Shown here one piece after another: positions 2,192 through 22,369 of a stretch of DNA of 64,000 bases. The number at the start of each line of letters is the position of its first letter. The first letter of the stretch is position 1. The position numbers and the translations under genes are program-made. Under the pieces are notes generated by a model. That model did no database searches. It was not told where the DNA came from and saw only the letters and a list, made by a program, of their open reading frames with translations. The stretch spans positions 37,022-101,021 of IMG/VR virus record IMGVR_UViG_3300050821_024084, one strand, 5' to 3'. The stretch is from a virus.

Positions 2192-2605
2192 TCATGCCGG
2201 CTCACTGTGCCAGATGACATGCAGCGGCGGCCAGTCCGTCCAGCGGGGCCGTCCGCGCACCCAGTCACCCAGTATCATGCGACCGTCCCGGCTCGTCTCC
2301 CGGAACGTCCACCAGGTCAGACCGCTGACATGCAGCTCCAGACGTCCGCACTGGAATTCGAGACGATTCGGCTCGCTGAACGGAGCATTCAGCCCGGCAT
2401 GCAGCCACAGACGCGCAGCCCGGGGACGCATGACCGGCGGCACATTCATCATCACGCATGCGCCCCACGGGAACGCAGGATTCACGTCGGCATGCAGCTC
2501 CAGCCAGCGCGTCCGCACACGGATGCACGGCACCCCCGCGTACGCATCGACGGAGAACACACCTGGTGGTGCAGCGGGGGTCCGGGGGCGGGGAATATCC
2601 GTCAT
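2192..2605 (-). CDS. Hypothetical phage protein
   Basis: 4-bp start/stop overlap with upstream ORF. Confidence 0.45.
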   Translation of the reverse strand: MTDIPRPRTPAAPPGVFSVDAYAGVPCIRVRTRWLELHADVNPAFPWGACVMMNVPPVMRPRAARLWLHAGLNAPFSEPNRLEFQCGRLELHVSGLTWWTFRETSRDGRMILGDWVRGRPRWTDWPPLHVIWHSEPA

Positions 2606-2931
2606 TCGCTCGCTTTCTTCTGTTTCAGGTACCAGGCTTCCAGCAGCTCTTCCGCTCGCTCCAGCTCCTCCAGCGCCTGCGCGCCGTGCAGCGCGCAGAT
2701 GACGGCATCCGCCTCGGCCCGGGTCAGCGCCTGCGCATCAGTCCACGTGCAGCCGCTGGAGCTGTGCGGAGGCGGATGACCCGGCTCCTGCGTGCAGATC
2801 GCGCCGTGCTGACAGAACGACTGACAGCACAGCTCATCAATCAGTCGCACTCCGGATTCTCTTCCCGCTTTCCCGCCGCGCGTCGCGCACGCGACAACGG
2901 ACCCGGCTGATTCGGATTCGGCTGATGCCAT
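2602..2931 (-). CDS. Hypothetical Cys/His-rich protein (true start may be near 2850)
   Basis: Operon packing. Confidence 0.45.
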   Translation of the reverse strand: MASAESESAGSVVACATRGGKAGRESGVRLIDELCCQSFCQHGAICTQEPGHPPPHSSSGCTWTDAQALTRAEADAVICALHGAQALEELERAEELLEAWYLKQKKASE

Positions 2932-3028
2932 CGTCGCGACCGCGACCCGTCATCCCGGTGCAGCTGCCGCAGATACGGCTCTATCTGCCGGTACGCGCTC
3001 GCGCGCCAGCGACCCGGATTGCGACGAC

Positions 3029-3298
3029 TCATTCCTCCTCCTCATAGAACGGCAGCGGCGCGAGCCAGTAGTACACCGTGATCCCGCTGCGCTCCCGGCT
3101 ACGCGACTCCCCCGCCTGCGACCCGTCCGGATACGACGCTCGCCAGACAATCTCATCCTGACCCGTCAGCCTGCGGATCTCATTCGCACGCCGACGAGCT
3201 GCCCCGGGCGATCCGCAGACACACAACGTCACCGGATCGCCATACGCGCCGATCTGCTCCGACAGCGTCCACACCGTCCGGTCAGACATCAGCATCAC
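3029..3298 (-). CDS. Hypothetical phage protein
   Basis: Operon packing. Confidence 0.5.
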   Translation of the reverse strand: MMLMSDRTVWTLSEQIGAYGDPVTLCVCGSPGAARRRANEIRRLTGQDEIVWRASYPDGSQAGESRSRERSGITVYYWLAPLPFYEEEE

Positions 3299-3596
3299 CT
3301 GGTCCCGGCCGGGGGTCCGGGGGAAGCAGCATCTCTGTCTGCATGCGACGCAGCTGCGACGCCGACCGGGGACGCACGGGGATGACCGTCCCCAGCAGCC
3401 GGAACTCCGCCGGATACGCGCGCGCAGCCGCCTGCGCCAGGATCATCCGCTGCACCACGTGAATCGCCGCACGCGCCTCCGCCAGATCCCCCTCGCGATT
3501 CGGACCCTGAGGGACCAGCAGCTCCAGCCTGGTGTAGCAGCCGCCCAGCTCCTGCACCAGCGCACGCTCAGCCGGGGTGAGCACGTCATCCGTCAT
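3282..3596 (-). CDS. Hypothetical phage protein
   Basis: GAGGAG RBS, ATGA overlap, helical composition. Confidence 0.6.
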   Translation of the reverse strand: MTDDVLTPAERALVQELGGCYTRLELLVPQGPNREGDLAEARAAIHVVQRMILAQAAARAYPAEFRLLGTVIPVRPRSASQLRRMQTEMLLPPDPRPGPGDADV

Positions 3597-5466: not shown

Positions 5467-5542
5467 CGCGGGGTAGAGGAGTTCGGTCGTCCTCGTGGCG
5501 CTCATAACGCCGAGATCGCAGGTTCAAATCCTGCCCCCGCTA
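5467..5542 (+). tRNA. tRNA-Met(CAT), initiator-like
   Basis: Full cloverleaf; CGCGGGG acceptor with C1:U72 mismatch; loop CTCATAA; CCA not encoded. Confidence 0.9.
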
Positions 5543-5545
5543 CGA

Positions 5546-8325: not shown

Positions 8326-9207
8326 ATGAAACTGAATCAGCCAGGGACCCGCGCGGGACGCGGACCTCTGGCAACGGAAACCGTCAGCTCAGTCAAGACG
8401 CACGAAGACGGCACCGGCTATCAGCGCGATGAGCGCTCGCAGCTGTTCCTGCTCGCCACCACGACGTTCGCAGGCGAGGGCAGCTTCTACGAGAGCGCTG
8501 CCGTCAGCGACGAGCGACTCAAGACCCTGACGCGCACGCTCGCGATCACGACGGACGGCTGGACGTGGCTCTGCGGATTCCTGCCGTGGCTGCGGAGCGA
8601 CGGCAGCATCCGGACTGCATCGCTGATCTGCGCCGCCGAGGCGGTAGCGGCCCGGATCGCGGAACGGAAGCGTCTGCTTCGTGGGGAACCTGCGACCGGA
8701 AGCTACGAGATTCTCGACACGCAGGGTCCGCCCCTGACGCACCGGCAGCTGATCGCAGTCGTCTGCCAGCGCGCCGACGAGCCCTGCGAGATGCTGGCTT
8801 ATGCGCTGGGGGTCTGGGGGCGCGCGCTGCCGCTGCCGGTCAAGCGAGGCATCGCTGATGCAGCGGTGCGGCTGTGGAACGAGGCTGCCGCGCTGCGCTG
8901 GGACAAGCCGGGGAACGCGGTGCGCTTTGCCGACGTACTGGAGCTCTGTCACCCCCGGACCGGAGCAGACTGGCAGAATGTCATGTTCCGGGATCTGATC
9001 ACGGAACGCAAGGGCCGGGACGACTACGAGCCGGACCGGCTGCTCCGCAAGGTGCGAGCACGCTGGCTGCTCAACCAGCAGCAGCCCGCCGGACGACACG
9101 CCATCGCGCGGCACGCGCTGGACGGCGACATGCAGGACCGGAAGCTCATCGACGACGCGGCAGTCGGTCAATGGGAATGGACACGAAGCTGGCTGGGTGA
9201 AAGGTGA
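8326..9207 (+). CDS. rsr: Ro60/TROVE protein, N-terminal part
   Basis: THEDGTGYQRDERSQLFLLA, FYES, QRADEP, PVKRGIADA, RFADVLELCHP are typical of actinobacterial TROVE. Confidence 0.88.
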   Translation: MKLNQPGTRAGRGPLATETVSSVKTHEDGTGYQRDERSQLFLLATTTFAGEGSFYESAAVSDERLKTLTRTLAITTDGWTWLCGFLPWLRSDGSIRTASLICAAEAVAARIAERKRLLRGEPATGSYEILDTQGPPLTHRQLIAVVCQRADEPCEMLAYALGVWGRALPLPVKRGIADAAVRLWNEAAALRWDKPGNAVRFADVLELCHPRTGADWQNVMFRDLITERKGRDDYEPDRLLRKVRARWLLNQQQPAGRHAIARHALDGDMQDRKLIDDAAVGQWEWTRSWLGER

Positions 9208-10183
9208 CATGGAACCAGATCGCCCCCCGGAGCTGATTGAAGGGCCGGGGGTGCAGGGGGAGCCGAAGGAGCTGCGCTCTGCCCTGCGCCTGACTCCTGC
9301 CGAGCAATGGCAGCTCATGATCCCGCAGATGGGCTACATGGCGCTACTGAGACAGCTGCGCGCGTTCGACAAGGCCGGAATCCCGGAATCCGTCGCGAAC
9401 AAGGTCGCGCAGCGGATTGCCGATCCCGCGCAGGTCGCACGCTCGCGACAGCTGCCGTTCCGGTTCTACTCGGCGTACATCAACGCGCCGTCGCTCCGCT
9501 GGGGGCAGGCACTGGAGCAGGCTCTCCAGGCGTGTCTCCCGAATGTCCCCGAGCTGCCCGGCCGGACGCTGATCCTGATCGACACCTCCGGCTCGATGGA
9601 GAGCTTCCTCTCCGAGCGACCCGACTCCCGGCCCCGACGGGGGAAGGGCCGCCGGGGCGGCAGCCCGGACGAGCCGCCGCCCGTCCGGCCGATGCGCGTC
9701 CAGGCAGCCGCTCTGCTCGGGCTGGCGCTCGCGCTGAAGAACCCGGAAGCTGTAGATGTCTGGGGTTTCGCTGACGGGCAGTTCCGGGTCACGGGCATCG
9801 GGCCGGGTCAGTCCCTGCTCAAGGCGGTGGAGGCGTTCAGCCGGTGCACCGGCAACGTCGGGCATGGTACGCAGATCGCGCTGGCGGCCCGGATGTGCTA
9901 CGGCGCGCACGACCGGGTGTGCATCTTCACGGACATGCAGACCTTCGGGCCGGGCGGAGGATTCGGCTTCTACAGCTCCTACGGCGTCGGGGATGTCAGC
10001 GCGGCGGTGCCTGCGCGGGTGCCGGTCTACGCCTTCAACCTGGCGGGCTACGAGGCGTCGGCTATGCCCGTCGGCGGGGGCAACCGTCACGAGCTGGGCG
10101 GTCTCTCGGACGCGACGTTCACAATGATCCCGGTTATCGAGGCCGGGCGCTCGGCGCGCTGGCCGTGGGAACAAGCAGCATGA
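9197..10183 (+). CDS. rsr: Ro60/TROVE protein, C-terminal part including VWA domain
   Basis: IPQMGYMALLRQLR, RSRQLPFRFYSAY, TLILIDTSGSM, FTDMQ, FNLAGY, GGLSDA. Confidence 0.88.
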   Translation: MKGDMEPDRPPELIEGPGVQGEPKELRSALRLTPAEQWQLMIPQMGYMALLRQLRAFDKAGIPESVANKVAQRIADPAQVARSRQLPFRFYSAYINAPSLRWGQALEQALQACLPNVPELPGRTLILIDTSGSMESFLSERPDSRPRRGKGRRGGSPDEPPPVRPMRVQAAALLGLALALKNPEAVDVWGFADGQFRVTGIGPGQSLLKAVEAFSRCTGNVGHGTQIALAARMCYGAHDRVCIFTDMQTFGPGGGFGFYSSYGVGDVSAAVPARVPVYAFNLAGYEASAMPVGGGNRHELGGLSDATFTMIPVIEAGRSARWPWEQAA

Positions 10184-13894: not shown

Positions 13895-14596
13895 ATGCTC
13901 AGGAACGTGGATAAGATCGAGCGCGTGAAAATCACCCGGCTGAAGCCATTCCCGGGTAATCCCCGCCGGGGGAACACGGAGGCGATCGCCGCCTCCTTGC
14001 AAGAGCACGGCCTGTACAAGCCGCTCATCGCGCAGCGCAGCACCGGGCACGTGATGGTCGGGAACAACACGCTGGACGCCGCGCAGCAGCTCGGCTGGAC
14101 CGAGATCGACGTCATCTACAAGGACGTCGACGATGACCGGGCGCAGCGCATCATGCTGGTGGACAACAAGACCAGCGACGAGGCCGACTACGACATGGTG
14201 CTGCTGTCAGTCCTCATAGACGCGCTGGAAAATGACTACACCGGCACCGGGTACGACCCGGAAGAAGCCGAGCAGCTCATCGCCCTGCGGCATGCGCTGG
14301 CAGCCGACGGGGAAGCCGCCGATGAGCTGATCGAGCTGACCGAGGTTCCCGCGACTGGCGCGGCCTACGCCGAGACCCCGTATCAGGAAGCCGCCCGTGC
14401 CGAGCGGCAGGCCCAGCAGACCCCCCGGCAGATCGCCGGGATGCGCGAGATCTTCCTGGTGTACCCGGAAGATGAGCACCGGGAGGTCACGGAGCTGCTA
14501 GCTCAGCTCCGGGAGGCGTGGGGGGAGGACATCCGCGCGCCGCAGATGGTGCTCCGGCTGCTGCGAGAAGCTGTCGCAGCCCTGGCTGTGCGGTAA
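13895..14596 (+). CDS. ParB/Srx N-terminal domain protein (may start leaderless at GTG 13907)
   Basis: LKPFPGNPRRGN, SLQEHG..PLI, GNNT, LVDNKTS. Confidence 0.85.
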   Translation: MLRNVDKIERVKITRLKPFPGNPRRGNTEAIAASLQEHGLYKPLIAQRSTGHVMVGNNTLDAAQQLGWTEIDVIYKDVDDDRAQRIMLVDNKTSDEADYDMVLLSVLIDALENDYTGTGYDPEEAEQLIALRHALAADGEAADELIELTEVPATGAAYAETPYQEAARAERQAQQTPRQIAGMREIFLVYPEDEHREVTELLAQLREAWGEDIRAPQMVLRLLREAVAALAVR

Positions 14597-14606
14597 GCTG
14601 GGGACC

Positions 14607-15515
14607 ATGCAACTAGGAATGCAGGTCAGCGAGCTGTGGGACGACTACGTCCGGTTTCACCGGCTCGCTCTGGAAACTCGTGACGTGGATCCCGTCTACC
14701 CGGTGCTCCGCCGGATATGTGACACCCAGGACTGGAGCACCGAGAAACGCGTTCAGGCGGTGCTCGCGCATGTCACGTACTACGATCTCGGCTCCGCGCT
14801 GCTGGCGCTGGAGACCGGCGACTGGCGCAAGCGCCCGATGGGCACGGAGCGTCGCAATCTGTTCCCGGACGAGCAGCTGGGCAAGCACCTGATCTCGACA
14901 GAGAAGGAAGTCGTTTTCTACGGCGGATACGTGCGCTGGCTCGGGGACGATCTGTCCGGCACGGACCGTCAGGGCAACTGGCGCATCGTCACCGAGCGGC
15001 TGCTGCGCGTGCACGGCAACGGTCGATGGGCCGCGTACAAGACATGCGAGATGCTCGCGGAGATCGCGGATTTCCCGCTCGACGCCCCGGACATGGGGCA
15101 TGCCTACTCCACCGGTCCCCGGCAGGGCCTGAATCTGCTGTATCCCGCTGCGCGTCTGGTACGCGGCATGCGCCCGGACGCCATCAGCGCGCTGGACGCC
15201 TACAGTACCCGGCTGTGCGCCCGGCTGGAAGATGCGGGACTCCCGGCGCGCATCGCCCAGACCGAGACCACGCTCTGCGACTTCCACGGTCTGGTAACAG
15301 GCCGGTACTACGTCGGGCATGACATTGATCTCATGCAGAAACAGCTCCTGAAGGCGGGGGAGGCCGGGGGGGATCTGGTGGAAGCAGCCTGGCGCGCACG
15401 GCTGGCGGTACTGCCGGCGAGCTACCTGGGGGAGGTAGGCCGTCGCTGGGAGGGACCGGACCGGCTGCGCAAGCTGGCGTACCGGCGCACGGGGGAGATC
15501 CTCACGCGTGACTGA
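14607..15515 (+). CDS. Amino acid:DNA transferase (aGPT-PPlase clade 2 / AADT)
   Basis: DVDPVY, GRWAAYK, GPRQGL, ETTLCDF, YYVGHDID motifs; kinase and TET in the same cluster. Confidence 0.8.
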   Translation: MQLGMQVSELWDDYVRFHRLALETRDVDPVYPVLRRICDTQDWSTEKRVQAVLAHVTYYDLGSALLALETGDWRKRPMGTERRNLFPDEQLGKHLISTEKEVVFYGGYVRWLGDDLSGTDRQGNWRIVTERLLRVHGNGRWAAYKTCEMLAEIADFPLDAPDMGHAYSTGPRQGLNLLYPAARLVRGMRPDAISALDAYSTRLCARLEDAGLPARIAQTETTLCDFHGLVTGRYYVGHDIDLMQKQLLKAGEAGGDLVEAAWRARLAVLPASYLGEVGRRWEGPDRLRKLAYRRTGEILTRD

Positions 15516-16383
15516 CGGCTGGACATACGGCGTCGAGCTGGAGTGGCCGGATGTTGACGTCCGGACGGAGCTGCCGGACGAATGGGCGTGGTCAGCCACG
15601 GACTACACCGTGGTCAGTTCCGACGGCATAGCGAACGATCCTAAACGCGAGCTGATCCTGCACGGCGGGGAGCTGAACTCCCCGGTGTGCCGGTCGCCGG
15701 AAGAACTGAGCGAGCGCAGCCTGGAGCTGGCCGAGCTGCTCCGGCCGGGCCGGAACTACCGCTCCAATCTGCATATCCACCTTGCGATGCCGGAGCTGGA
15801 GAACCTGGAGCTGCTCAAGCAAGCAGCGGATTTCACCTGGCGTGAGCTGCCGCGCACGCTGGAGGTCATGGATCCGCTGCGGATGCTGCTCAACGGCCTG
15901 ACTGATACTGATGAGATTGCCGGAGCGGAGAAGCGGATGGCGCATTCTGCGCGGTCCCGGCACTACTTCACCAGCCGGACGCGTCACCTGATGCGGATGC
16001 AGGCCCGGTCGCGAGAGGAATTCCTCCGGGCGGAAGTGCCGCTGCGCAAGCGCGACGGTGCGCCGCAGTGGCAGCTCGCCCCGCGCGAGGCGGTGAACTT
16101 CCGGTCGCTGCGCAAGCACGGGACCGTGGAGTTCCGGTTCTTTGCCGGGGATGACCGGGGCCACGGCGTGCGGGCAGCGGCGAGCTTCGCGCGGGACTGG
16201 ATGCGCTGCGCCTGCGAGGACAATAAGGGCTTCGAGGTGCCGTACTGGGATGAGCTGCCGGTGCAGCTCCCGTTCGAGCTGCGGCTTGAGCGGGGCTGGG
16301 CCTGGACCAATCTCCAGCACAATTCGCGTGACACGGTTCGACAGCGCCTGGCTGATATGGGTAAGCTGGATGCATGTACGTGA
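15508..16383 (+). CDS. Putative amidoligase (carboxylate-amine ligase)
   Basis: YGVELE, ELNSP, NLHIH, AVNF..L..HGTVEFR. Confidence 0.8.
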   Translation: MTDGWTYGVELEWPDVDVRTELPDEWAWSATDYTVVSSDGIANDPKRELILHGGELNSPVCRSPEELSERSLELAELLRPGRNYRSNLHIHLAMPELENLELLKQAADFTWRELPRTLEVMDPLRMLLNGLTDTDEIAGAEKRMAHSARSRHYFTSRTRHLMRMQARSREEFLRAEVPLRKRDGAPQWQLAPREAVNFRSLRKHGTVEFRFFAGDDRGHGVRAAASFARDWMRCACEDNKGFEVPYWDELPVQLPFELRLERGWAWTNLQHNSRDTVRQRLADMGKLDACT

Positions 16384-16784
16384 TGGTCGTCTGCGCCGGG
16401 AATGTCGCTCGCAGTCCTGCGCTGGCCTGCCTGCTCCAGGCGTCCCGGGCGGATCTGCGAGTGGAATCAGCTGGCGTCGGCCGCAAGGCTGTTGCCGGCC
16501 TGCGGATGAAGAAGCCGATGCGCGGGCTGCTCACGCAGGCGGGCTACGCGGAATTCGCGCAGGCGCATCGCAGTCGGCTGATAGCCGATCTGCCAGAGCG
16601 CCCGGATCTGTGTATCGCGGTCGGTGTCCCGCAGATGCGACGCCTGGAAGAGCTGCTGCCGGACGTGCCCCGGCAGGCGTGCGATCCGCTGATTCCTGAC
16701 CCGGCCTACGGAGATCAGGTCTCCTACGACCGGGCCTGGACGTGTATCCTGGAGAACGCCGCCCGGCTGGCGGTGGCCCTGTGA
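16374..16784 (+). CDS. LMW protein-tyrosine phosphatase/ArsC-like protein
   Basis: VCAGNVARS (CX5R), VESAG, IPDP. Confidence 0.82.
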   Translation: MYVMVVCAGNVARSPALACLLQASRADLRVESAGVGRKAVAGLRMKKPMRGLLTQAGYAEFAQAHRSRLIADLPERPDLCIAVGVPQMRRLEELLPDVPRQACDPLIPDPAYGDQVSYDRAWTCILENAARLAVAL

Positions 16785-17617
16785 AGCTTATCGTGGTGGG
16801 GGCAGGCATCGCCGGGTCGGCCCTGTGCCAGCTCGCTGAAGAGCGCGGGCACGACGTGACGCTGGTGTCGGACGGCGTGCCGGACAGCCTGGCGGCGACG
16901 GCGGTGCTGCGGCGCGGTTACCATGCGGGCAAGCCGGACCAGCTGGCGGCCCTGGACTACGCCCTGGACTGCTACCAGCGGTGGGGGGTGCCGGTGCGCC
17001 GGGGCGGGCTAGGGCAGAGCTACCGGCGGCTCGGGGATGAGCCGGTGGCAGATGAGGACTGGCTCCTGCTGGACCCCGCCGCTCCGCTGGCGGAACCCGA
17101 CGTGCGCGCTGAGATCCTGACGGTGAAGAACGGGACGGCGTGGCTCGGGGCGGGCCGGTCGCTGGAAGGCGATGCTGTTGTTGTCGCAACCGGTGCCCGG
17201 GAGGGCAATCTCCAGGCGACAGGGAGCGTCACCTGGGGCGTCACCCTGGTGCACAGCCATCCGGAGGCGCTGCGCGACGAGCAGATCCGCATCTACCAGT
17301 GGGCCCCGTACCGGACGATCGTCGCCGGGGTAGTGAACGGGGAAGCCCGGGTGGGCTCGTCATCGGCCCGGAGCCCGGATGCGGCCCGGAACCAGATGAC
17401 CAAGATGCTGGAGAAAGCCTGGGGTCTGGGCTGGCTGACCACGCGAAAAAGCTGGGGCGAGGTGCTGGGCGCGCGACTGAAGACCGAGCAGCTGTCCTGG
17501 CGGGATCCTGAGGACGGGGCCTGGCGGCTGGCCGGGTTCCACCGGACCGGCTATGCGCTAGCTCCGGCTGCGGCACGTGATCTGCTGAGCGAGATCGAGT
17601 TGACGGTCAGCGGGTAA
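16781..17617 (+). CDS. FAD-dependent oxidoreductase (glycine oxidase/DAO-like)
   Basis: VVGAGIAG, VVVATG, GFHRTGYALAP. Confidence 0.82.
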   Translation: MKLIVVGAGIAGSALCQLAEERGHDVTLVSDGVPDSLAATAVLRRGYHAGKPDQLAALDYALDCYQRWGVPVRRGGLGQSYRRLGDEPVADEDWLLLDPAAPLAEPDVRAEILTVKNGTAWLGAGRSLEGDAVVVATGAREGNLQATGSVTWGVTLVHSHPEALRDEQIRIYQWAPYRTIVAGVVNGEARVGSSSARSPDAARNQMTKMLEKAWGLGWLTTRKSWGEVLGARLKTEQLSWRDPEDGAWRLAGFHRTGYALAPAAARDLLSEIELTVSG

Positions 17618-17635
17618 TCTGCTAGTCTCGGGTAT

Positions 17636-18223
17636 GTGTACCTGGTATACCTGACGGGAGCGCCTGCGACCGGGAAATCCTCGCTGATGGCCCGGCTGAC
17701 GAACGGTCTCACGCGCGTGCCGCAGCTGGCAGACGGCGTGGTTCCGTACGAGGAGCTGCTGGCTCCTGACGGGCGGATGACCGGTGTGGAGCTCGGCAAG
17801 CGCCGGGAGCGATTCTCCGGCACGGACGCGATGGCGTACAGCATCATGCCGAAGGTCTGCGCCTGGGTGGAGCGCTCCATGCGCGAGCTGATGCTGGGCG
17901 AGGGCGATCGCCTGTCCAGCATGAAGTTCCTGACTGCTGCTGAGAAGGCGGGCTACGAGATACATCTCGTGCATCTGAGTGCCCGGCAGTCCGTGCTGGA
18001 CGAGCGCTGCGAGGCACGAGGAAGCCGCCAGTCCCGGCACTGGCGCATCGGGCGCGTCACGATGGCTGTCCGCCTGGCGGCTCACGCAGAAGCTGCCGGG
18101 CACACGGTGCACACGCTGGATGCCGAGCGCCCGCTTGATGAGCTGGTGCGTGAGATGCGGGAGCAGATGCCGTTCCTGCTGGAACTGGGGAACGCCGATG
18201 ATCCGGTTGCGACTCGCCACTAG
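17636..18223 (+). CDS. P-loop kinase, probable 5-hydroxymethylpyrimidine DNA kinase
   Basis: GAPATGKS, FSGTDAM, EGDRL, RCEARGS; cluster context. Confidence 0.78.
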   Translation: MYLVYLTGAPATGKSSLMARLTNGLTRVPQLADGVVPYEELLAPDGRMTGVELGKRRERFSGTDAMAYSIMPKVCAWVERSMRELMLGEGDRLSSMKFLTAAEKAGYEIHLVHLSARQSVLDERCEARGSRQSRHWRIGRVTMAVRLAAHAEAAGHTVHTLDAERPLDELVREMREQMPFLLELGNADDPVATRH

Positions 18224-19508
18224 AGTAGCAGATCGCGTTATCAAGGAAAAGCTCGAAGGCTATACCCTAGGTGAGCAGGACTATGACGTCCTGGTGCGCG
18301 GGAAGGCGCTCGTGCGGATGCCGGACGGACGTCCGCTGCTGTGCTATCTGCCGGGCGTCCTGAAAGAGACCCAGGAGCGCGAGGGCGTCTACGATATTCT
18401 GCATCCGCTGTACACGCACATGACCAACAACCGGGGCGCGGCCAGCGGGACGCGGAGGATCGTCCGGGGGTCCGGCGAGAAGACCGGCAAGCGCAGCGAT
18501 GCGATGTCGGTGGCCTCGCCGTTCATCGGGGCGGCAGATCCCGGCGGGATCTACCGGTACTGCCGTCTGACAGAATGGACTGGCAGTCATCTCCCGCAGT
18601 GGGAGGCACTGCATCCGTATCTCCGGGAGATCGCGCATCACTTCGAGCAGCAGATCCCGGATCGGCATGCCGTCCAGATGGAGTACGTGCAGCGCACCGA
18701 CCACGCCTGGGTCGTGCCGGGAACGCCGTTCACCACTATCACCGTCAACAACTCGTTCGCGACGGGCGTGCACAAGGACGCCGGGGATCTGGAGACGGGG
18801 TTCTCCGCGCTGTCCTGCCTGCGTCAGGGCGACTACGAGGGCGGCGTCCTGGTGTTTCCCGCGTATCGCATCGGGGTAGACATGCAGGACGGGGATCTGC
18901 TGCTGATGGACGCGCATCAGTGGCACGGCAACACCCGCATGATGTGCGGCTGCGGGGAGCCTATCCAGCGGCGGTTCTGCGAGACGTGCGGGGCTGAGCG
19001 GATCAGCGTGGTGTGCTATTACCGGACTAAGATAGCCGACTGCGGCACCCCGGAAGAGGAACTGGAACGCGCCGTGACGGACACGGAGCGCCGGTCAGGA
19101 CTAGGAGACGAGCTTGATGAGCGGGACACGAACTCAGACCCTGCAAGTGGACTCCCGGGCGCTCCAGCGGTACGTGCAGGGGATGACCTACCAGCAGATA
19201 GCGGACGCGGAGCAGTGCTCCGAGCAGACAGCTCACATCCGGGTCCGCCGGGCGATCCGGAACCAGTACCGGCTGGAAGCCGACGAGCTCCGCGTCGTCG
19301 CGGACGAGCAGCTCAGCTTCCTGACCCGGCAGCTGACCGCGCTGATCCACAAGAAGTCCTACAAGATAGCGCCCAACGGGAAGATCGCCGTTCACCCGGA
19401 GACCGGGGAGCCGCTGGAGGACTACAGCGAGCAGCGGATGACCGCGCTGGCGCTGCTCAAGGTGGGCGAGTCCCGGCGCAAGCTGCTCGGACTCGACCAG
19501 CCAGTTAA
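18198..19508 (+). CDS. TET/JBP-family 2OG-Fe(II) dioxygenase; last ~130 codons overlap TerS
   Basis: TPFTTITVN, HKD, WHGN, RISVVCYYR. Confidence 0.85.
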   Translation: MIRLRLATRVADRVIKEKLEGYTLGEQDYDVLVRGKALVRMPDGRPLLCYLPGVLKETQEREGVYDILHPLYTHMTNNRGAASGTRRIVRGSGEKTGKRSDAMSVASPFIGAADPGGIYRYCRLTEWTGSHLPQWEALHPYLREIAHHFEQQIPDRHAVQMEYVQRTDHAWVVPGTPFTTITVNNSFATGVHKDAGDLETGFSALSCLRQGDYEGGVLVFPAYRIGVDMQDGDLLLMDAHQWHGNTRMMCGCGEPIQRRFCETCGAERISVVCYYRTKIADCGTPEEELERAVTDTERRSGLGDELDERDTNSDPASGLPGAPAVRAGDDLPADSGRGAVLRADSSHPGPPGDPEPVPAGSRRAPRRRGRAAQLPDPAADRADPQEVLQDSAQREDRRSPGDRGAAGGLQRAADDRAGAAQGGRVPAQAARTRPAS

Positions 19509-19641
19509 GCACCGGGTGGAGATCACCGACAAGATGGACTCCGAGATCGAGCGCCTGGCGCAGGATCTCGCTGCGAACGGCGCAGGCGAGCCGGTGCTGC
19601 CGGAGCTACCTGCCGGGGTGACGTCCGGTGACGGAGACTGA
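19117..19641 (+). CDS. terS: Terminase small subunit (HTH)
   Basis: GMTYQQIA HTH, RRKLLGLDQP, AGGAG RBS, directly upstream of TerL. Confidence 0.78.
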   Translation: MSGTRTQTLQVDSRALQRYVQGMTYQQIADAEQCSEQTAHIRVRRAIRNQYRLEADELRVVADEQLSFLTRQLTALIHKKSYKIAPNGKIAVHPETGEPLEDYSEQRMTALALLKVGESRRKLLGLDQPVKHRVEITDKMDSEIERLAQDLAANGAGEPVLPELPAGVTSGDGD

Positions 19642-22369
19642 CGAGCCTCCGGAGCTCCCCCCTAACTGGCGGGATCTCGGTCCTGATGCCAAGCGCGTGC
19701 TGCTGCACAAGCTGCGCGGCATGGCGGTCAGCAAAGGACTGGGCGGACCTCGTGAGTGGCGGTCGAAAGCGCGGCCCAAGCAGCTGCCCCCGAGTGACCC
19801 AGCACATCATCTGCCGGACGGTAACGGGTTCAGATGCGGATGTTCCGGTCCTGATGAGAACTGGAATATCTGGATGTTCATGGCCGGCCGGGGGTGTGTT
19901 GCCGGGCATACGCGCATCTGGCTACCGCTGGAGAACCGGTTCGAGCGGATCGATACGCTAGTCCGTCAGGGAGAGGCCGTCATTGTCCTCTCCCTGACGG
20001 AGAATGGCGCAGAACCACGTCAGACTGACGGGGCTCCTTTCATCGGGGGCGTGGCAGAGCTGTATGATGTGCTGACTTCGGACGGCAACCGCATCACGGT
20101 GACTGACCGGCATCGTTTCCTGACTCCGCAAGGATGGCTGCCACTCGCTCGCGTGCACGTCGGACAGCTTCTTGCCGGAGGCGCTCCCGCTCCTCCGCAG
20201 GAAGCTTCTTCACACCGGTCAGGGTGGCGTGAAGATGCTCGGAATTGGCGGGGAACACGCGAAGATTCTCCGGACGATTATCCGAGGTATCCCCGTTCAC
20301 ATGATCAACTACCTCGTCAGGGGACAGGCAGCGTCCTAGCACCTGCTCCATCACGAGTCGATGCTGCCGGACATACCCGAGATTATTCATGTGAGGATGA
20401 TTTCTCATCTTCACGAGAATGTAACCGTCCTCGTCGACTGCATAGCCTCCCTTCCAGAAGTAGTTATGCTCGGGACGCGCTTTCGCCTCTAGACACGGAA
20501 GTCCGAGTTCTATCAGGCGTGAGCGAACTGTCTCTGCGTTACAGCCGAGGATGGCTGCCATTTCCGTGCATGTCATCTGCTGGGCATGCAAGTCGCGGAG
20601 CTTATCAGTGTCTACAGGCATGCGACTGCCCTGAGACATGCGCTTGCGCGACAGGTCAGAAGCCCTATGCCCTCGCAGCTGCACCCCGGCACGTTGCAGA
20701 GCGCGTCCTACGGTCTGATAACTTGTTCCGGTTGTCTGAGCAAGGTCTTTCAGCGGCTCTCCTTCCTGATAGCGCCGGATCAGGTCCGGAAGAAGATCTG
20801 ACGGTATCTTGGAGTACTCTCGGCTCGGCATGTGAGCATGGTATCACGTGGACGAGAGTACGGTCGGTCCGGTCTGCGGGAACAGGATGGTTTTATGACC
20901 TGACTGTCCCTGGTGCAGAGAATTATGCGGCGGAAGGTCTCTGGCATCACAATTGCGGAAAAACCTGGTCGGGCGCTAACTGGATAATTGAACAGGCGCT
21001 CCGGAACCCGGGAACGATGTGGGCGGTCGTTGCCCCGACATTCCGGGATGTCCGGGTCACGTGCTTCGAAGGCCCCTCCGGGATTCGACGTCTTCTTCAG
21101 CCTGGTGAGGAAGATCAATGGCGCAGGAATGAGCTGCGCCTGGATCTGGTGAATGGCTCCGTTATTTACGGGTATTCGGCTGACCAGCCGGAACGATTGC
21201 GCGGATCTAACCTTTCCGGGGCGTGGGTAGATGAAATGGGGAGTTTTGCGTATGAGGAAACCTGGTATGAGGGACTAGTCCCTGCGCTACGTATCGGGGA
21301 ACATCCCCGTGTCATGGTCACCACGACTCCGCGCCCGACGAAGCTCATCCGGGATCTGTACTCGCGTCGCGACGGCACCGTTCACACCACCACGGCCTCC
21401 ACCTGGGAGAATGCGGCCAACCTGTCGGCTGCCGCCCTCGATGAGCTCAAGCGCCGGTACGAAGGCACCCGGCTGGGCCGTCAGGAGCTTGAAGGCGTCC
21501 TCCTGGAGGATCTGGAAGGCGCGCTGTGGCGGCGCAGCGATATCGACGCTGCGCGAGTCAGGCCGGAGGACGTGCCAGATCTGGCCCGCGTGGTGGTGGC
21601 GATCGACCCGGCGATGAGCGCCGACGAGGATGCTGACGAGACGGGCATCATCGTGTCCGGGGAAGACGGGCGCGGCCACGGGTACGTCCTGGCGGACTGG
21701 TCGATGCAGGGCACGCCCGAGGCATGCATGCGGCGGGCTGTCCAGGCGTACAAGCACTACAACGCGGACTGCGTCGTGGCTGAGGTCAACAACGGCGGTG
21801 ACTTTATCGGCACGGTGCTGCGCACCGTCGATCCGAATCTGCCCTACCATCAGGTGCGGGCCTCGCGCGGGAAGGCGATCCGGGCAGAGCCTGTGTCGTC
21901 ACTGGCGGAGCAGCACCGGCTGCATCACGTGGGGAACTTCCCGGAGCTGGAAGATCAGCTCTGCTCATTCGTCCCGGGAATCGCCGGGCCGTCCCCGGAC
22001 CGGCTTGACGCGCTGGTCTGGTCAGTATTCGAGCTGAAGAGCTTGTCGCAGTCCAGCTGGCTCTCCGCGTACGGAGCCATCCGCTGCACGCAATGCGAGA
22101 TGGCGTTCCGGGGCTCGGCGACGTGCCCGCGCTGCGGAGCAGATGCACCTGCATCGCCTGACGGGGGAAGCTTCTCCCCGGAGGGGGCGGGGGAGGATCG
22201 CAGCATGGGCGGCTGGGCCTCGGTGTACCGGCTGGCCAGGTGCAGCAAGGGACACGTGTACTCTGAGCGGTCCGGTGGCTGCCCGCAGTGCCGGTCCGGC
22301 GGCCTGGACTGGCTGCGCGCGCACGGCAAGCCCGGTGGACAGGCAGGTTCCGGGGCGGTAAGCTCGTAG
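19628..22369 (+). CDS. terL: Terminase large subunit with one intein and C-terminal Zn-finger extension
   Basis: Spliced Walker A GRG/CGKT, Walker B WVDE, TTTP, nuclease AIDPA, SPDRLDA. Confidence 0.95.
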   Translation: MTETDEPPELPPNWRDLGPDAKRVLLHKLRGMAVSKGLGGPREWRSKARPKQLPPSDPAHHLPDGNGFRCGCSGPDENWNIWMFMAGRGCVAGHTRIWLPLENRFERIDTLVRQGEAVIVLSLTENGAEPRQTDGAPFIGGVAELYDVLTSDGNRITVTDRHRFLTPQGWLPLARVHVGQLLAGGAPAPPQEASSHRSGWREDARNWRGTREDSPDDYPRYPRSHDQLPRQGTGSVLAPAPSRVDAAGHTRDYSCEDDFSSSRECNRPRRLHSLPSRSSYARDALSPLDTEVRVLSGVSELSLRYSRGWLPFPCMSSAGHASRGAYQCLQACDCPETCACATGQKPYALAAAPRHVAERVLRSDNLFRLSEQGLSAALLPDSAGSGPEEDLTVSWSTLGSACEHGITWTRVRSVRSAGTGWFYDLTVPGAENYAAEGLWHHNCGKTWSGANWIIEQALRNPGTMWAVVAPTFRDVRVTCFEGPSGIRRLLQPGEEDQWRRNELRLDLVNGSVIYGYSADQPERLRGSNLSGAWVDEMGSFAYEETWYEGLVPALRIGEHPRVMVTTTPRPTKLIRDLYSRRDGTVHTTTASTWENAANLSAAALDELKRRYEGTRLGRQELEGVLLEDLEGALWRRSDIDAARVRPEDVPDLARVVVAIDPAMSADEDADETGIIVSGEDGRGHGYVLADWSMQGTPEACMRRAVQAYKHYNADCVVAEVNNGGDFIGTVLRTVDPNLPYHQVRASRGKAIRAEPVSSLAEQHRLHHVGNFPELEDQLCSFVPGIAGPSPDRLDALVWSVFELKSLSQSSWLSAYGAIRCTQCEMAFRGSATCPRCGADAPASPDGGSFSPEGAGEDRSMGGWASVYRLARCSKGHVYSERSGGCPQCRSGGLDWLRAHGKPGGQAGSGAVSS
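19895..20953 (+). mobile_element. Intein (353 aa) in TerL Walker A
   Basis: Starts CVAGHT, block B VTDRHRF, ends YDLTV...HHN before Cys +1. Confidence 0.92.
20094..20831 (-). CDS. HNH homing endonuclease with HTH repeats, antisense within the intein
   Basis: WKGG...DGY, YVRQHRLVME, EVVDHVNGDTSDNRPENL; own TGnTACCAT leaderless promoter. Confidence 0.9.
   Translation of the reverse strand: MPSREYSKIPSDLLPDLIRRYQEGEPLKDLAQTTGTSYQTVGRALQRAGVQLRGHRASDLSRKRMSQGSRMPVDTDKLRDLHAQQMTCTEMAAILGCNAETVRSRLIELGLPCLEAKARPEHNYFWKGGYAVDEDGYILVKMRNHPHMNNLGYVRQHRLVMEQVLGRCLSPDEVVDHVNGDTSDNRPENLRVFPANSEHLHATLTGVKKLPAEERERLRQEAVRRARERVAAILAESGNDAGQSP

Follow-up and report, generated by a model that had tools for sequence, protein, structure and literature searches.

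A predicted late gene cluster for thymine hypermodification in an uncultured actinophage pairs a carboxylate-amine ligase with a phosphatase

Virus record IMGVR_UViG_3300050821_024084 of the IMG/VR database derives from an uncultured, high-GC actinophage. The 64,000-nucleotide stretch of it analysed here (termed the window: positions 37022-101021 of the 101-kb record, about 65% GC) contains seven contiguous plus-strand genes (13895-19508) whose ends overlap or almost touch. Together, these genes would constitute an operon for late-expressed, post-replicative hypermodification of thymine, situated immediately upstream of the packaging genes. That the operon carries thymine as far as 5-aminomethyluracil (5-aminomethyl-U) we predict with good confidence, and we lean towards the complete pathway, in which this amine is further acylated to N-acyl-5-aminomethyluracil. 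N-acyl-5-aminomethyluracil is the likely product because the cluster encodes a lyase of the gp47 family of phage PaMx11 and an amino acid:DNA transferase (AADT) with the glycine pocket of PaMx11 gp46, because related loci have routes to a DNA-borne amine, and because a ligase-phosphatase pair occupies the slot that belongs to the gp48 acetyltransferase in PaMx11.

In the pathway that we propose, a TET/JBP dioxygenase and its ParB-like partner would oxidize thymine in DNA to 5-hydroxymethyluracil (5hmU), which a P-loop kinase would convert to 5-phosphomethyl-U. The AADT would then swap the phosphate for glycine to form N-alpha-glycinylthymidine, from which the gp47-like flavin lyase would release glyoxylate to leave 5-aminomethyl-U. 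Finally, an amidoligase with the glutamine synthetase/gamma-glutamylcysteine ligase (GS/GCL) fold would use ATP to couple a free carboxylic acid to the amine, yielding N-acyl-5-aminomethyluracil and replacing the acetyl-CoA-dependent acetylation of PaMx11. As a guess, the low-molecular-weight protein tyrosine phosphatase (LMW-PTP, or PTP) encoded beside the ligase might strip a phosphate from the acyl donor or from an off-pathway intermediate, or return 5-phosphomethyl-U to 5hmU. The first four steps are predicted from homologous enzymes whose activity has been published, and the fifth from fold, synteny and co-occurrence; the nature of the acyl group is likewise a guess. An earlier interpretation made from the nucleotide sequence alone (here, the sequence-only reading) had proposed this same order, from the action of TET on thymine through phosphorylation, amino acid transfer and flavin-dependent cleavage to acylation by the amidoligase, and it is the order best supported by comparison with related systems, on the grounds of the gp47 homologue, the glycine pocket and the position of the pair.

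The AADT, which matches 25qc in the PDB, a protein with an AADT domain (E 2e-6), retains equivalents of all six of the PaMx11 gp46 residues D24, W146, K150, E243, T244 and C247. In gp46, D24, W146 and K150 serve glycine binding, E243 and T244 the metal, and Cys247 is catalytic; the PhiW-14 enzyme, which transfers putrescine, has Tyr at position 146 (PMC11472151). The reading frame of the flavin enzyme is open from a GTG at 16742, and its likely start is the GTG at 16781, which overlaps the stop codon of the phosphatase gene as GTGA. The protein groups with short GR2-type FAD enzymes of ~285 amino acids and carries a GxGxxG motif, and a profile of its family (13 sequences, that of the window included) matches 8Z2O, the gp47 "flavin-dependent lyase", over the full length (E 2e-85). 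That structure was also the top PDB match when the profile was restricted to the 6 sequences of the clade containing the window enzyme (E 4e-8, across the first 190 positions); as a single sequence, the window enzyme returned no PDB match at E 0.01. Of the positions that form the base cage of gp47 (286 amino acids, also termed NGTO), it keeps P179, Y180 (within APY) and R181, with W51 replaced by Y, Q182 by T and K268 by R. Published work has established that gp47 converts N-alpha-glycinylthymidine to 5-aminomethyl-dU, and that DNA binding is affected only modestly in a Q182A mutant (PMC11472151). On this profile evidence, the window enzyme is a homologue of gp47/NGTO.

Related loci were collected by scanning IMG/VR with an alignment of the amidoligase, which yielded 80 loci and, together with an unverified "phage Simon" and the window itself, a survey set of 82; their genes were annotated with iteratively built hidden Markov models (HMMs) and spot-checked against Pfam, and those flanked by 3.5 kb or more in both directions (43 loci) formed a well-flanked subset. 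An LMW-PTP accompanies the amidoligase in 75 of the 82 loci, nearly always as the very next gene, and an AADT and a P-loop kinase are each present in 72. TET occurs in 57 loci, and 13 have instead a ThyA-like hydroxymethylase and a kinase of the 5hmU DNA kinase (HMUDK) type. Nearly all of the well-flanked loci (37/43) share a core of amidoligase, PTP, AADT and kinase, which is joined either by a class-II glutamine amidotransferase (GATase; 26/43) or by a flavin lyase (10/43), the two never co-occurring. Without exception, the donor pocket of the AADT goes with the type of tailoring enzyme: W146 and K150 occur in each of the 14 flavin-type loci, and in each of the 53 GATase-type loci position 146 is Y or F and position 150 is F, N or L. 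Three loci of the glycine type (L010, L018 and L067) lack the flavin lyase as well as the GATase, and all three possess radical S-adenosylmethionine (radical-SAM) and pyridoxal-phosphate (PLP) enzymes, the combination that in phage M6 leads from N-alpha-glycinylthymidine to 5-aminoethyl-dU (PMC8989533). Because either the flavin lyase or the radical-SAM and PLP enzymes are always present, all glycine-type loci possess a means of turning the glycine adduct into a primary amine on the DNA.

The position of the ligase and phosphatase genes points in the same direction. The order of genes in PaMx11 is gp46 (AADT), gp47 (flavin lyase), gp48 (acetyltransferase), gp49-50 (kinase), gp51 (hydroxymethylase) and gp52 (HD) (PMC8989533, PMC11472151), and that of phage Simon and similar loci is AADT, flavin lyase, amidoligase, PTP, kinase, hydroxymethylase and HD: these gene orders make the amidoligase-PTP pair the positional counterpart of the amine-capping gp48 acetyltransferase. 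Neither a GNAT acetyltransferase nor a class-II GATase was found across the 101-kb record of the window. In five GATase-type loci (L011, L012, L015, L016 and L058), the PTP gene adjoins that of the amidoligase but is encoded on the other strand, and its motifs are preserved.

The amidoligase has 134 homologues in a large protein collection, many of which carry the Amidoligase_2 domain (PF12224), and homologues 60-65% identical to the window protein are among these carriers. This domain is matched by 14 of 16 aligned family members (best E 4e-8). The alignment contains invariant E-x-E, H-x-H and E-F-R motifs and several Arg, and the window protein keeps every invariant residue, including E10, E12, E55, H89, H91, R193, R199, E208 and R210, in keeping with the acidic metal-binding strands and basic ATP-binding residues of the GS/GCL fold. 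An AlphaFold2 model built on the family alignment (pLDDT 91.4, pTM 0.89) matched, in a Foldseek search of the PDB, members of one superfamily only: the gamma-glutamylcysteine ligase domain of GshF, YbdK, Dop/PafA, and glutamine and gamma-glutamyl-amide synthetases. A profile of the family searched against the PDB gave nothing meaningful. Because of the GS/GCL-fold matches and the membership in the PF12224 family, the window protein is, as judged from its modelled fold and its relatives, an ATP-dependent carboxylate-amine ligase. Of the profiles by which the sequence-only reading proposed to check its assignments, those for the AADT (aGPT-Pplase2, the Pfam family ADDT) and Tet_JBP thus match the window proteins themselves, and Amidoligase_2 matches most of the aligned homologues but not the window protein. 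The same reading suggested gamma-glutamyl as the acyl group; by analogy alone this is a fair first guess, because nearly all characterised members of the GS/GCL fold, to our knowledge, activate the gamma-carboxylate of glutamate.

The phosphatase has a P-loop of the form C7-AGNVA-R13-S14 (CX5R-S) and a general acid at D109-P110 ("IPDPAYGD"), with C7, G9, N10, R13, S14, D109 and P110 invariant across 18 homologues, and its best PDB relatives are Wzb and PtpA. It is fused to the amidoligase in P0066, P0087 and L018 and to the DNA kinase in L036, and a 776-amino acid metagenome protein (P0125) combines a TET-associated glycosyltransferase, the amidoligase and the LMW-PTP in one polypeptide, a hint that in some phages the attachment of a sugar goes together with the action of ligase and phosphatase. 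The sequence-only reading had assigned the CX5R phosphatase to the clearance of unreacted phosphate, but such a clean-up of 5-phosphomethyl groups left by the kinase fits the data less well, because the PTP tracks the ligase, to which it is sometimes fused, and is missing in the pathways of M6 and PaMx11, where there is a kinase and no amidoligase; it would leave unexplained why the PTP follows the amidoligase, and not the kinase, across loci. Roles as an arginine phosphatase or an ArsC-like enzyme were also set aside: enzymes of the YwlE type have T at the P-loop position where the window PTP has V, and there was no evidence in it for ArsC-type cysteines. Synthase-phosphatase logic, or the removal of phosphate from an off-pathway product, would explain the coupling of ligase and PTP, though we offer both as guesses.

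At the start of the pathway, the TET protein displays the motifs HKD...HGNT...R (the R lying within "ERISVV"), and its HxD aligns with the HxD of human TET2. Its last conserved Cys is followed by a conserved stretch, "GTPEEELERA...", and C-terminal sequence beyond this Cys is a feature of the ParB-dependent subclass of 5mYOX enzymes, of which those of the ParB-linked clade C1 are demonstrated T-dioxygenases, linked to kinases and AADTs (PMC13229309). Searches of the whole 101-kb record detected neither a C5-methyltransferase (PF00145) nor a ThyA-like dUMP hydroxymethylase (PF00303), so that what the sequence-only reading had said about the window (no cytosine methyltransferase and no dUMP hydroxymethylase) holds for the entire record. 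From the lack of a C5-methyltransferase and the presence of downstream enzymes of the 5hmU type, we predict the window TET to be T-specific and ParB-assisted. No family-A polymerase or uracil-DNA glycosylase of the sort that recent work connects with T-modified phages was found in the record. The ParB-like protein is the likely activator of the T-dioxygenase. It does not keep the arginines of the GxxRxxA CTP-binding box (the box reads GNNTLDA, within "VGNNTLDAA"), which is consistent with the report that mutations of the NTP site are without effect on the ParB associated with 5mYOX enzymes (PMC13229309).

The sequence-only reading had ended both TET and the cluster at 19120, which proved wrong: from its likely start, the ATG at 18198, the TET frame stays open to 19508, and its last ~130 codons overlap, by ~390 nt and in another frame, a gene resembling that for the small terminase (terS-like, from 19117). 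Within 19117-19508, codon-position GC follows the terS frame and not the TET frame. In two close relatives (L005 and L006), TET ends in a separate tail of ~130 amino acids, rich in P, E, A and K, with its stop before the terS-like gene, and this tail is missing in the window. Because only the terS frame shows coding constraint, we read the extension of the window TET as a read-through or possibly an assembly error, and not as coding sequence under conservation. A further trait, common to the window TET and those of L005 and L006, is a CxC...CxxC insert (at ~18950-19010 in the window, residues "MMCGCGEPIQRRFCETCGAER"), which resembles a small zinc ribbon and is lacking in more distant ParB-linked TETs. 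The kinase has the Walker A motif GAPATGKS. The helical domain HMUDK_hel, belonging to the PF18748 + PF18723 architecture of M6- and PaMx11-type loci, was not found in the window, and it is confined to ThyA-type loci among those surveyed. Because this domain is absent, we assign the window kinase to a different family, presumed to do the same job.

Comparison with known systems separates what is established from what is new. The window resembles the PaMx11 pathway to 5-acetylaminomethyl-dU in its glycine-type AADT residues, its gp47-family lyase and, as predicted, in the phosphorylation of 5hmU in DNA and the capping of the amine. The two differ in the origin of 5hmU, which in PaMx11 is made before replication by a dUMP hydroxymethylase and in the window would be made by TET and ParB on finished DNA; in the kinase, which is of the HMUDK type with a helical domain in PaMx11 and of the Ploopntkinase3 family in the window; and in the last step, where the acetyltransferase of PaMx11 is replaced by the ATP-dependent GS/GCL-fold ligase and the LMW-PTP. 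With the ParB-dependent T-dioxygenases of 5mYOX clade C1 (O'Toole et al. 2026, PMC13229309), the window shares the TET/JBP-ParB operon, the sequence following the last Cys, the lack of a C5-methyltransferase, and the linkage to a P-loop kinase, an AADT and terminase. However, the partners given in that account are GATases, kinases and AADTs, with no mention of a phosphatase, ligase or oxidoreductase, and the window TET departs from it in the CxC...CxxC insert and the read-through tail. Metavirome contigs that combine 5-HMUDK and AADT with flavin oxidoreductases, amidoligases and glutaminotransferases were described by Lee et al. 2021 (PMC8989533), along with a group in which TET_JBP stands in for the dUMP hydroxymethylase. 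There, the amidoligase was given no function and LMW-PTP was not mentioned, and the pairing of ligase and PTP, the mutual exclusivity of flavin lyase and GATase, and the co-variation of the AADT pocket have no counterpart in that study. Nor did full-text searches turn up any other paper in which an LMW-PTP is described from clusters for thymidine hypermodification.

TET-initiated hypermodification of thymine with ParB, kinase and AADT is thus already published (PMC13229309, PMC8989533), and its novelty is smaller than the sequence-only reading had implied. What is already known covers the type of pathway and steps one to four; the uncharacterised capping pair and the predicted final base go beyond it.

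Cassettes without the pair occur in cultured actinophages: Mycobacterium phages Phelemich and Reprobate (Acadianvirus, genes 1-5), Gordonia phages such as MakoManhole, and Rhodococcus phage Tonitrus carry ParB-TET-AADT(-flavin)-kinase directly before terminase (PMC11955845). The amidoligase-PTP pair is absent from all of these, and among 50,697 phage records a clear homologue was present only in phage Simon. The Phelemich genes run ParB, TET, AADT, a gp47-like "oxidoreductase" and kinase, followed by terminase, and the identities to the window proteins are 34% for ParB (gp1), 27% for TET (E 4e-5), 41% for AADT and 39% for the flavin enzyme (E 2e-46). By this comparison of sequences and gene order, the window is a Phelemich-type cassette into which the amidoligase-PTP pair has apparently been inserted, and because Phelemich holds the cassette without the pair, we regard the pair as a probable add-on that acts after 5-aminomethyl-U. 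The papers searched contain no report of modified DNA in Phelemich-type mycobacteriophages. Some deposited annotations of these cassettes can be refined: gp2 of MakoManhole (L001, 801-1661), deposited as "oxidoreductase", matches the TET/JBP HMM, and in Phelemich (L086) the "hypothetical" gp2 (810-1673) is TET-like and the "oxidoreductase/monooxygenase" gp4 (2545-3333) is a homologue of the gp47-type flavin lyase.

Several observations weigh against a pathway that ends in acylation of 5-aminomethyl-U. The gene order in the window, AADT-ligase-PTP-flavin, departs from the proposed order of reactions, and why an ordinary amide ligation should require a phosphatase is unexplained. The window amidoligase itself has no Pfam match (PF12224 searched to E<=1), the Foldseek matches of its model reach a best E of 3.5e-4 with modest TM-scores (0.3-0.37), and the flavin enzyme is just ~20% identical to gp47-like members and does not keep Q182. 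Moreover, most of the related loci pair the amidoligase and PTP with a GATase and lack a flavin lyase, and in these GATase loci the pair may amidate a DNA-borne carboxylate. Were the same to apply to the window, the amidoligase would join ammonia or another amine to the carboxylate of N-alpha-glycinylthymidine to produce a glycinamide- or dipeptide-type base, and the flavin lyase would act on a separate fraction of sites or in salvage. GS-type enzymes do activate carboxylates, the ligase directly follows the AADT in the window, and the 26 of 43 well-flanked loci with a class-II GATase, and no flavin lyase, have in it a supplier of ammonia. We nevertheless consider amidation unlikely here: the record of the window contains no GATase, and because the donor pocket of GATase-type AADTs differs (Y or F at position 146), glycine is probably not what the AADT attaches in those loci. 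In addition, a lyase of the gp47 type would remove anything built on the glycine carboxylate, and each glycine-type locus has a set of enzymes that removes this carboxylate and generates an amine.

We give similarly little credence to the notion that the amidoligase and LMW-PTP act away from DNA, by making or trimming a small-molecule donor for the AADT or by modifying protein or cell wall, which would leave 5-aminomethyl-U as the DNA product. Phelemich-type phages manage without the pair, LMW-PTPs are usually protein phosphatases, and phage Amidoligase_2 proteins were first predicted to synthesise metabolites or to modify peptides (Iyer 2009, as cited in PMC10580990). However, this amidoligase clade is embedded among AADT, kinase and tailoring genes in the 37 well-flanked loci with the shared core, it is fused in one case to a TET-associated glycosyltransferase (P0125), the PTP is fused in one case to the DNA kinase (L036), and the AADT of the window keeps a pocket for plain glycine. 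It is highly improbable that TET acts on 5-methylcytosine supplied by a methylase of the host or from an unlinked gene, such that the cluster would modify cytosine and not thymine. Phage TETs of clades A and B are indeed described as 5-methylcytosine dioxygenases (PMC8256090, as cited in PMC13229309), and with a record that CheckV estimates to be 88% complete, some of the genome lies outside the data; but a C5-methyltransferase is absent from the 101 kb, this TET is ParB-linked like the T-dioxygenase subclass, and AADT and gp47-like enzymes have been characterised solely on uracil-derived bases.

The seven genes and the packaging genes that follow them are listed in Table 1. Matches to Pfam, codon-position GC and, for the amidoligase, homologues and fold confirmed the seven genes as the sequence-only reading had listed them, contiguous and on the plus strand. 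The GC content at the three codon positions (about 0.72/0.46/0.82) has the pattern of real genes in all seven. Directly downstream of the cluster are the terS-like gene and then the large terminase. Because no tyrosine integrase was found in the 101 kb and the layout of the record, with the cassette before terminase, agrees with that of lytic actinophage genomes, the "provirus" label given to the record in IMG/VR is doubtful and may be wrong. Elsewhere in the window, a 328-amino acid open reading frame (9197-10183) matches the TROVE domain (E 2e-13), a domain of Ro60-type RNA-binding proteins that is unusual for a phage, and there is a lone tRNA-Met (CAT) gene at 5467-5543.

Table 1. Genes of the predicted thymine hypermodification cluster and of the adjoining packaging region (window positions).
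Feature	Positions	Strand	Matches and remarks
ParB-like protein, 233 aa	13895..14596	+	Pfam ParB_N, E 7e-8
Amino acid:DNA transferase (AADT / aGPT-Pplase2), predicted glycine type	14607..15515	+	Pfam ADDT PF18724, E 1e-13
GS/GCL-fold carboxylate-amine ligase (Amidoligase_2-like), 291 aa	15508..16383	+	No direct Pfam match; homologues, AlphaFold2 fold
LMW-PTP, 136 aa	16374..16784	+	Pfam LMWPc PF01451, E 8e-6, 26.5 bits (cut-off 23.2)
Flavin-dependent lyase, PaMx11 gp47 (NGTO) family	16781..17617	+	DAO/Pyr_redox_2 weak; family profile
P-loop kinase, predicted 5hmU DNA kinase	17636..18223	+	Pfam Ploopntkinase3 PF18751, E 2e-33
TET/JBP (5mYOX) dioxygenase	18198..19508	+	Pfam Tet_JBP PF12851, E 2e-17; catalytic core to ~19110
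terS-like helix-turn-helix protein, resembles small terminase	19117-19641		Directly downstream of TET
Large terminase (Terminase_6N/6C)	19628-22369		Contains intein (Intein_splicing, residues 102-442)
Giant portal-MuF-NUDIX open reading frame, 2179 aa	22972-29511		Portal, LAGLIDADG (intein-type), MuF and NUDIX hydrolase domains

Hypermodified thymines make phage DNA resistant to nucleases, restriction enzymes among them, and the enzymes of their synthesis serve in DNA labelling and sequencing. The same ligase-phosphatase pair occurs in many uncultured phages and in three pathway backgrounds, and the survey yields a testable rule, namely that the pair caps a DNA-borne primary amine. Phelemich and Reprobate, which are cultured and hold the cassette without the pair, make a simple add-back experiment possible. 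A more speculative extension, which we regard as possible though doubtful, is that the pair constitutes a portable capping module, in which the ligase would add a phosphorylated carboxylic acid to the DNA amine and the phosphatase would then free a hydroxyl. The donor might, on the same tentative footing, be a phospho-hydroxy or phospho-amino acid, for example, and the freed hydroxyl might be glycosylated in some phages, as the triple fusion in P0125 would suggest. If true, the products of such a module would make up a new chemical class among the hypermodified thymines, reached by three routes to the amine: a flavin lyase, radical-SAM and PLP enzymes, or a non-glycine AADT.

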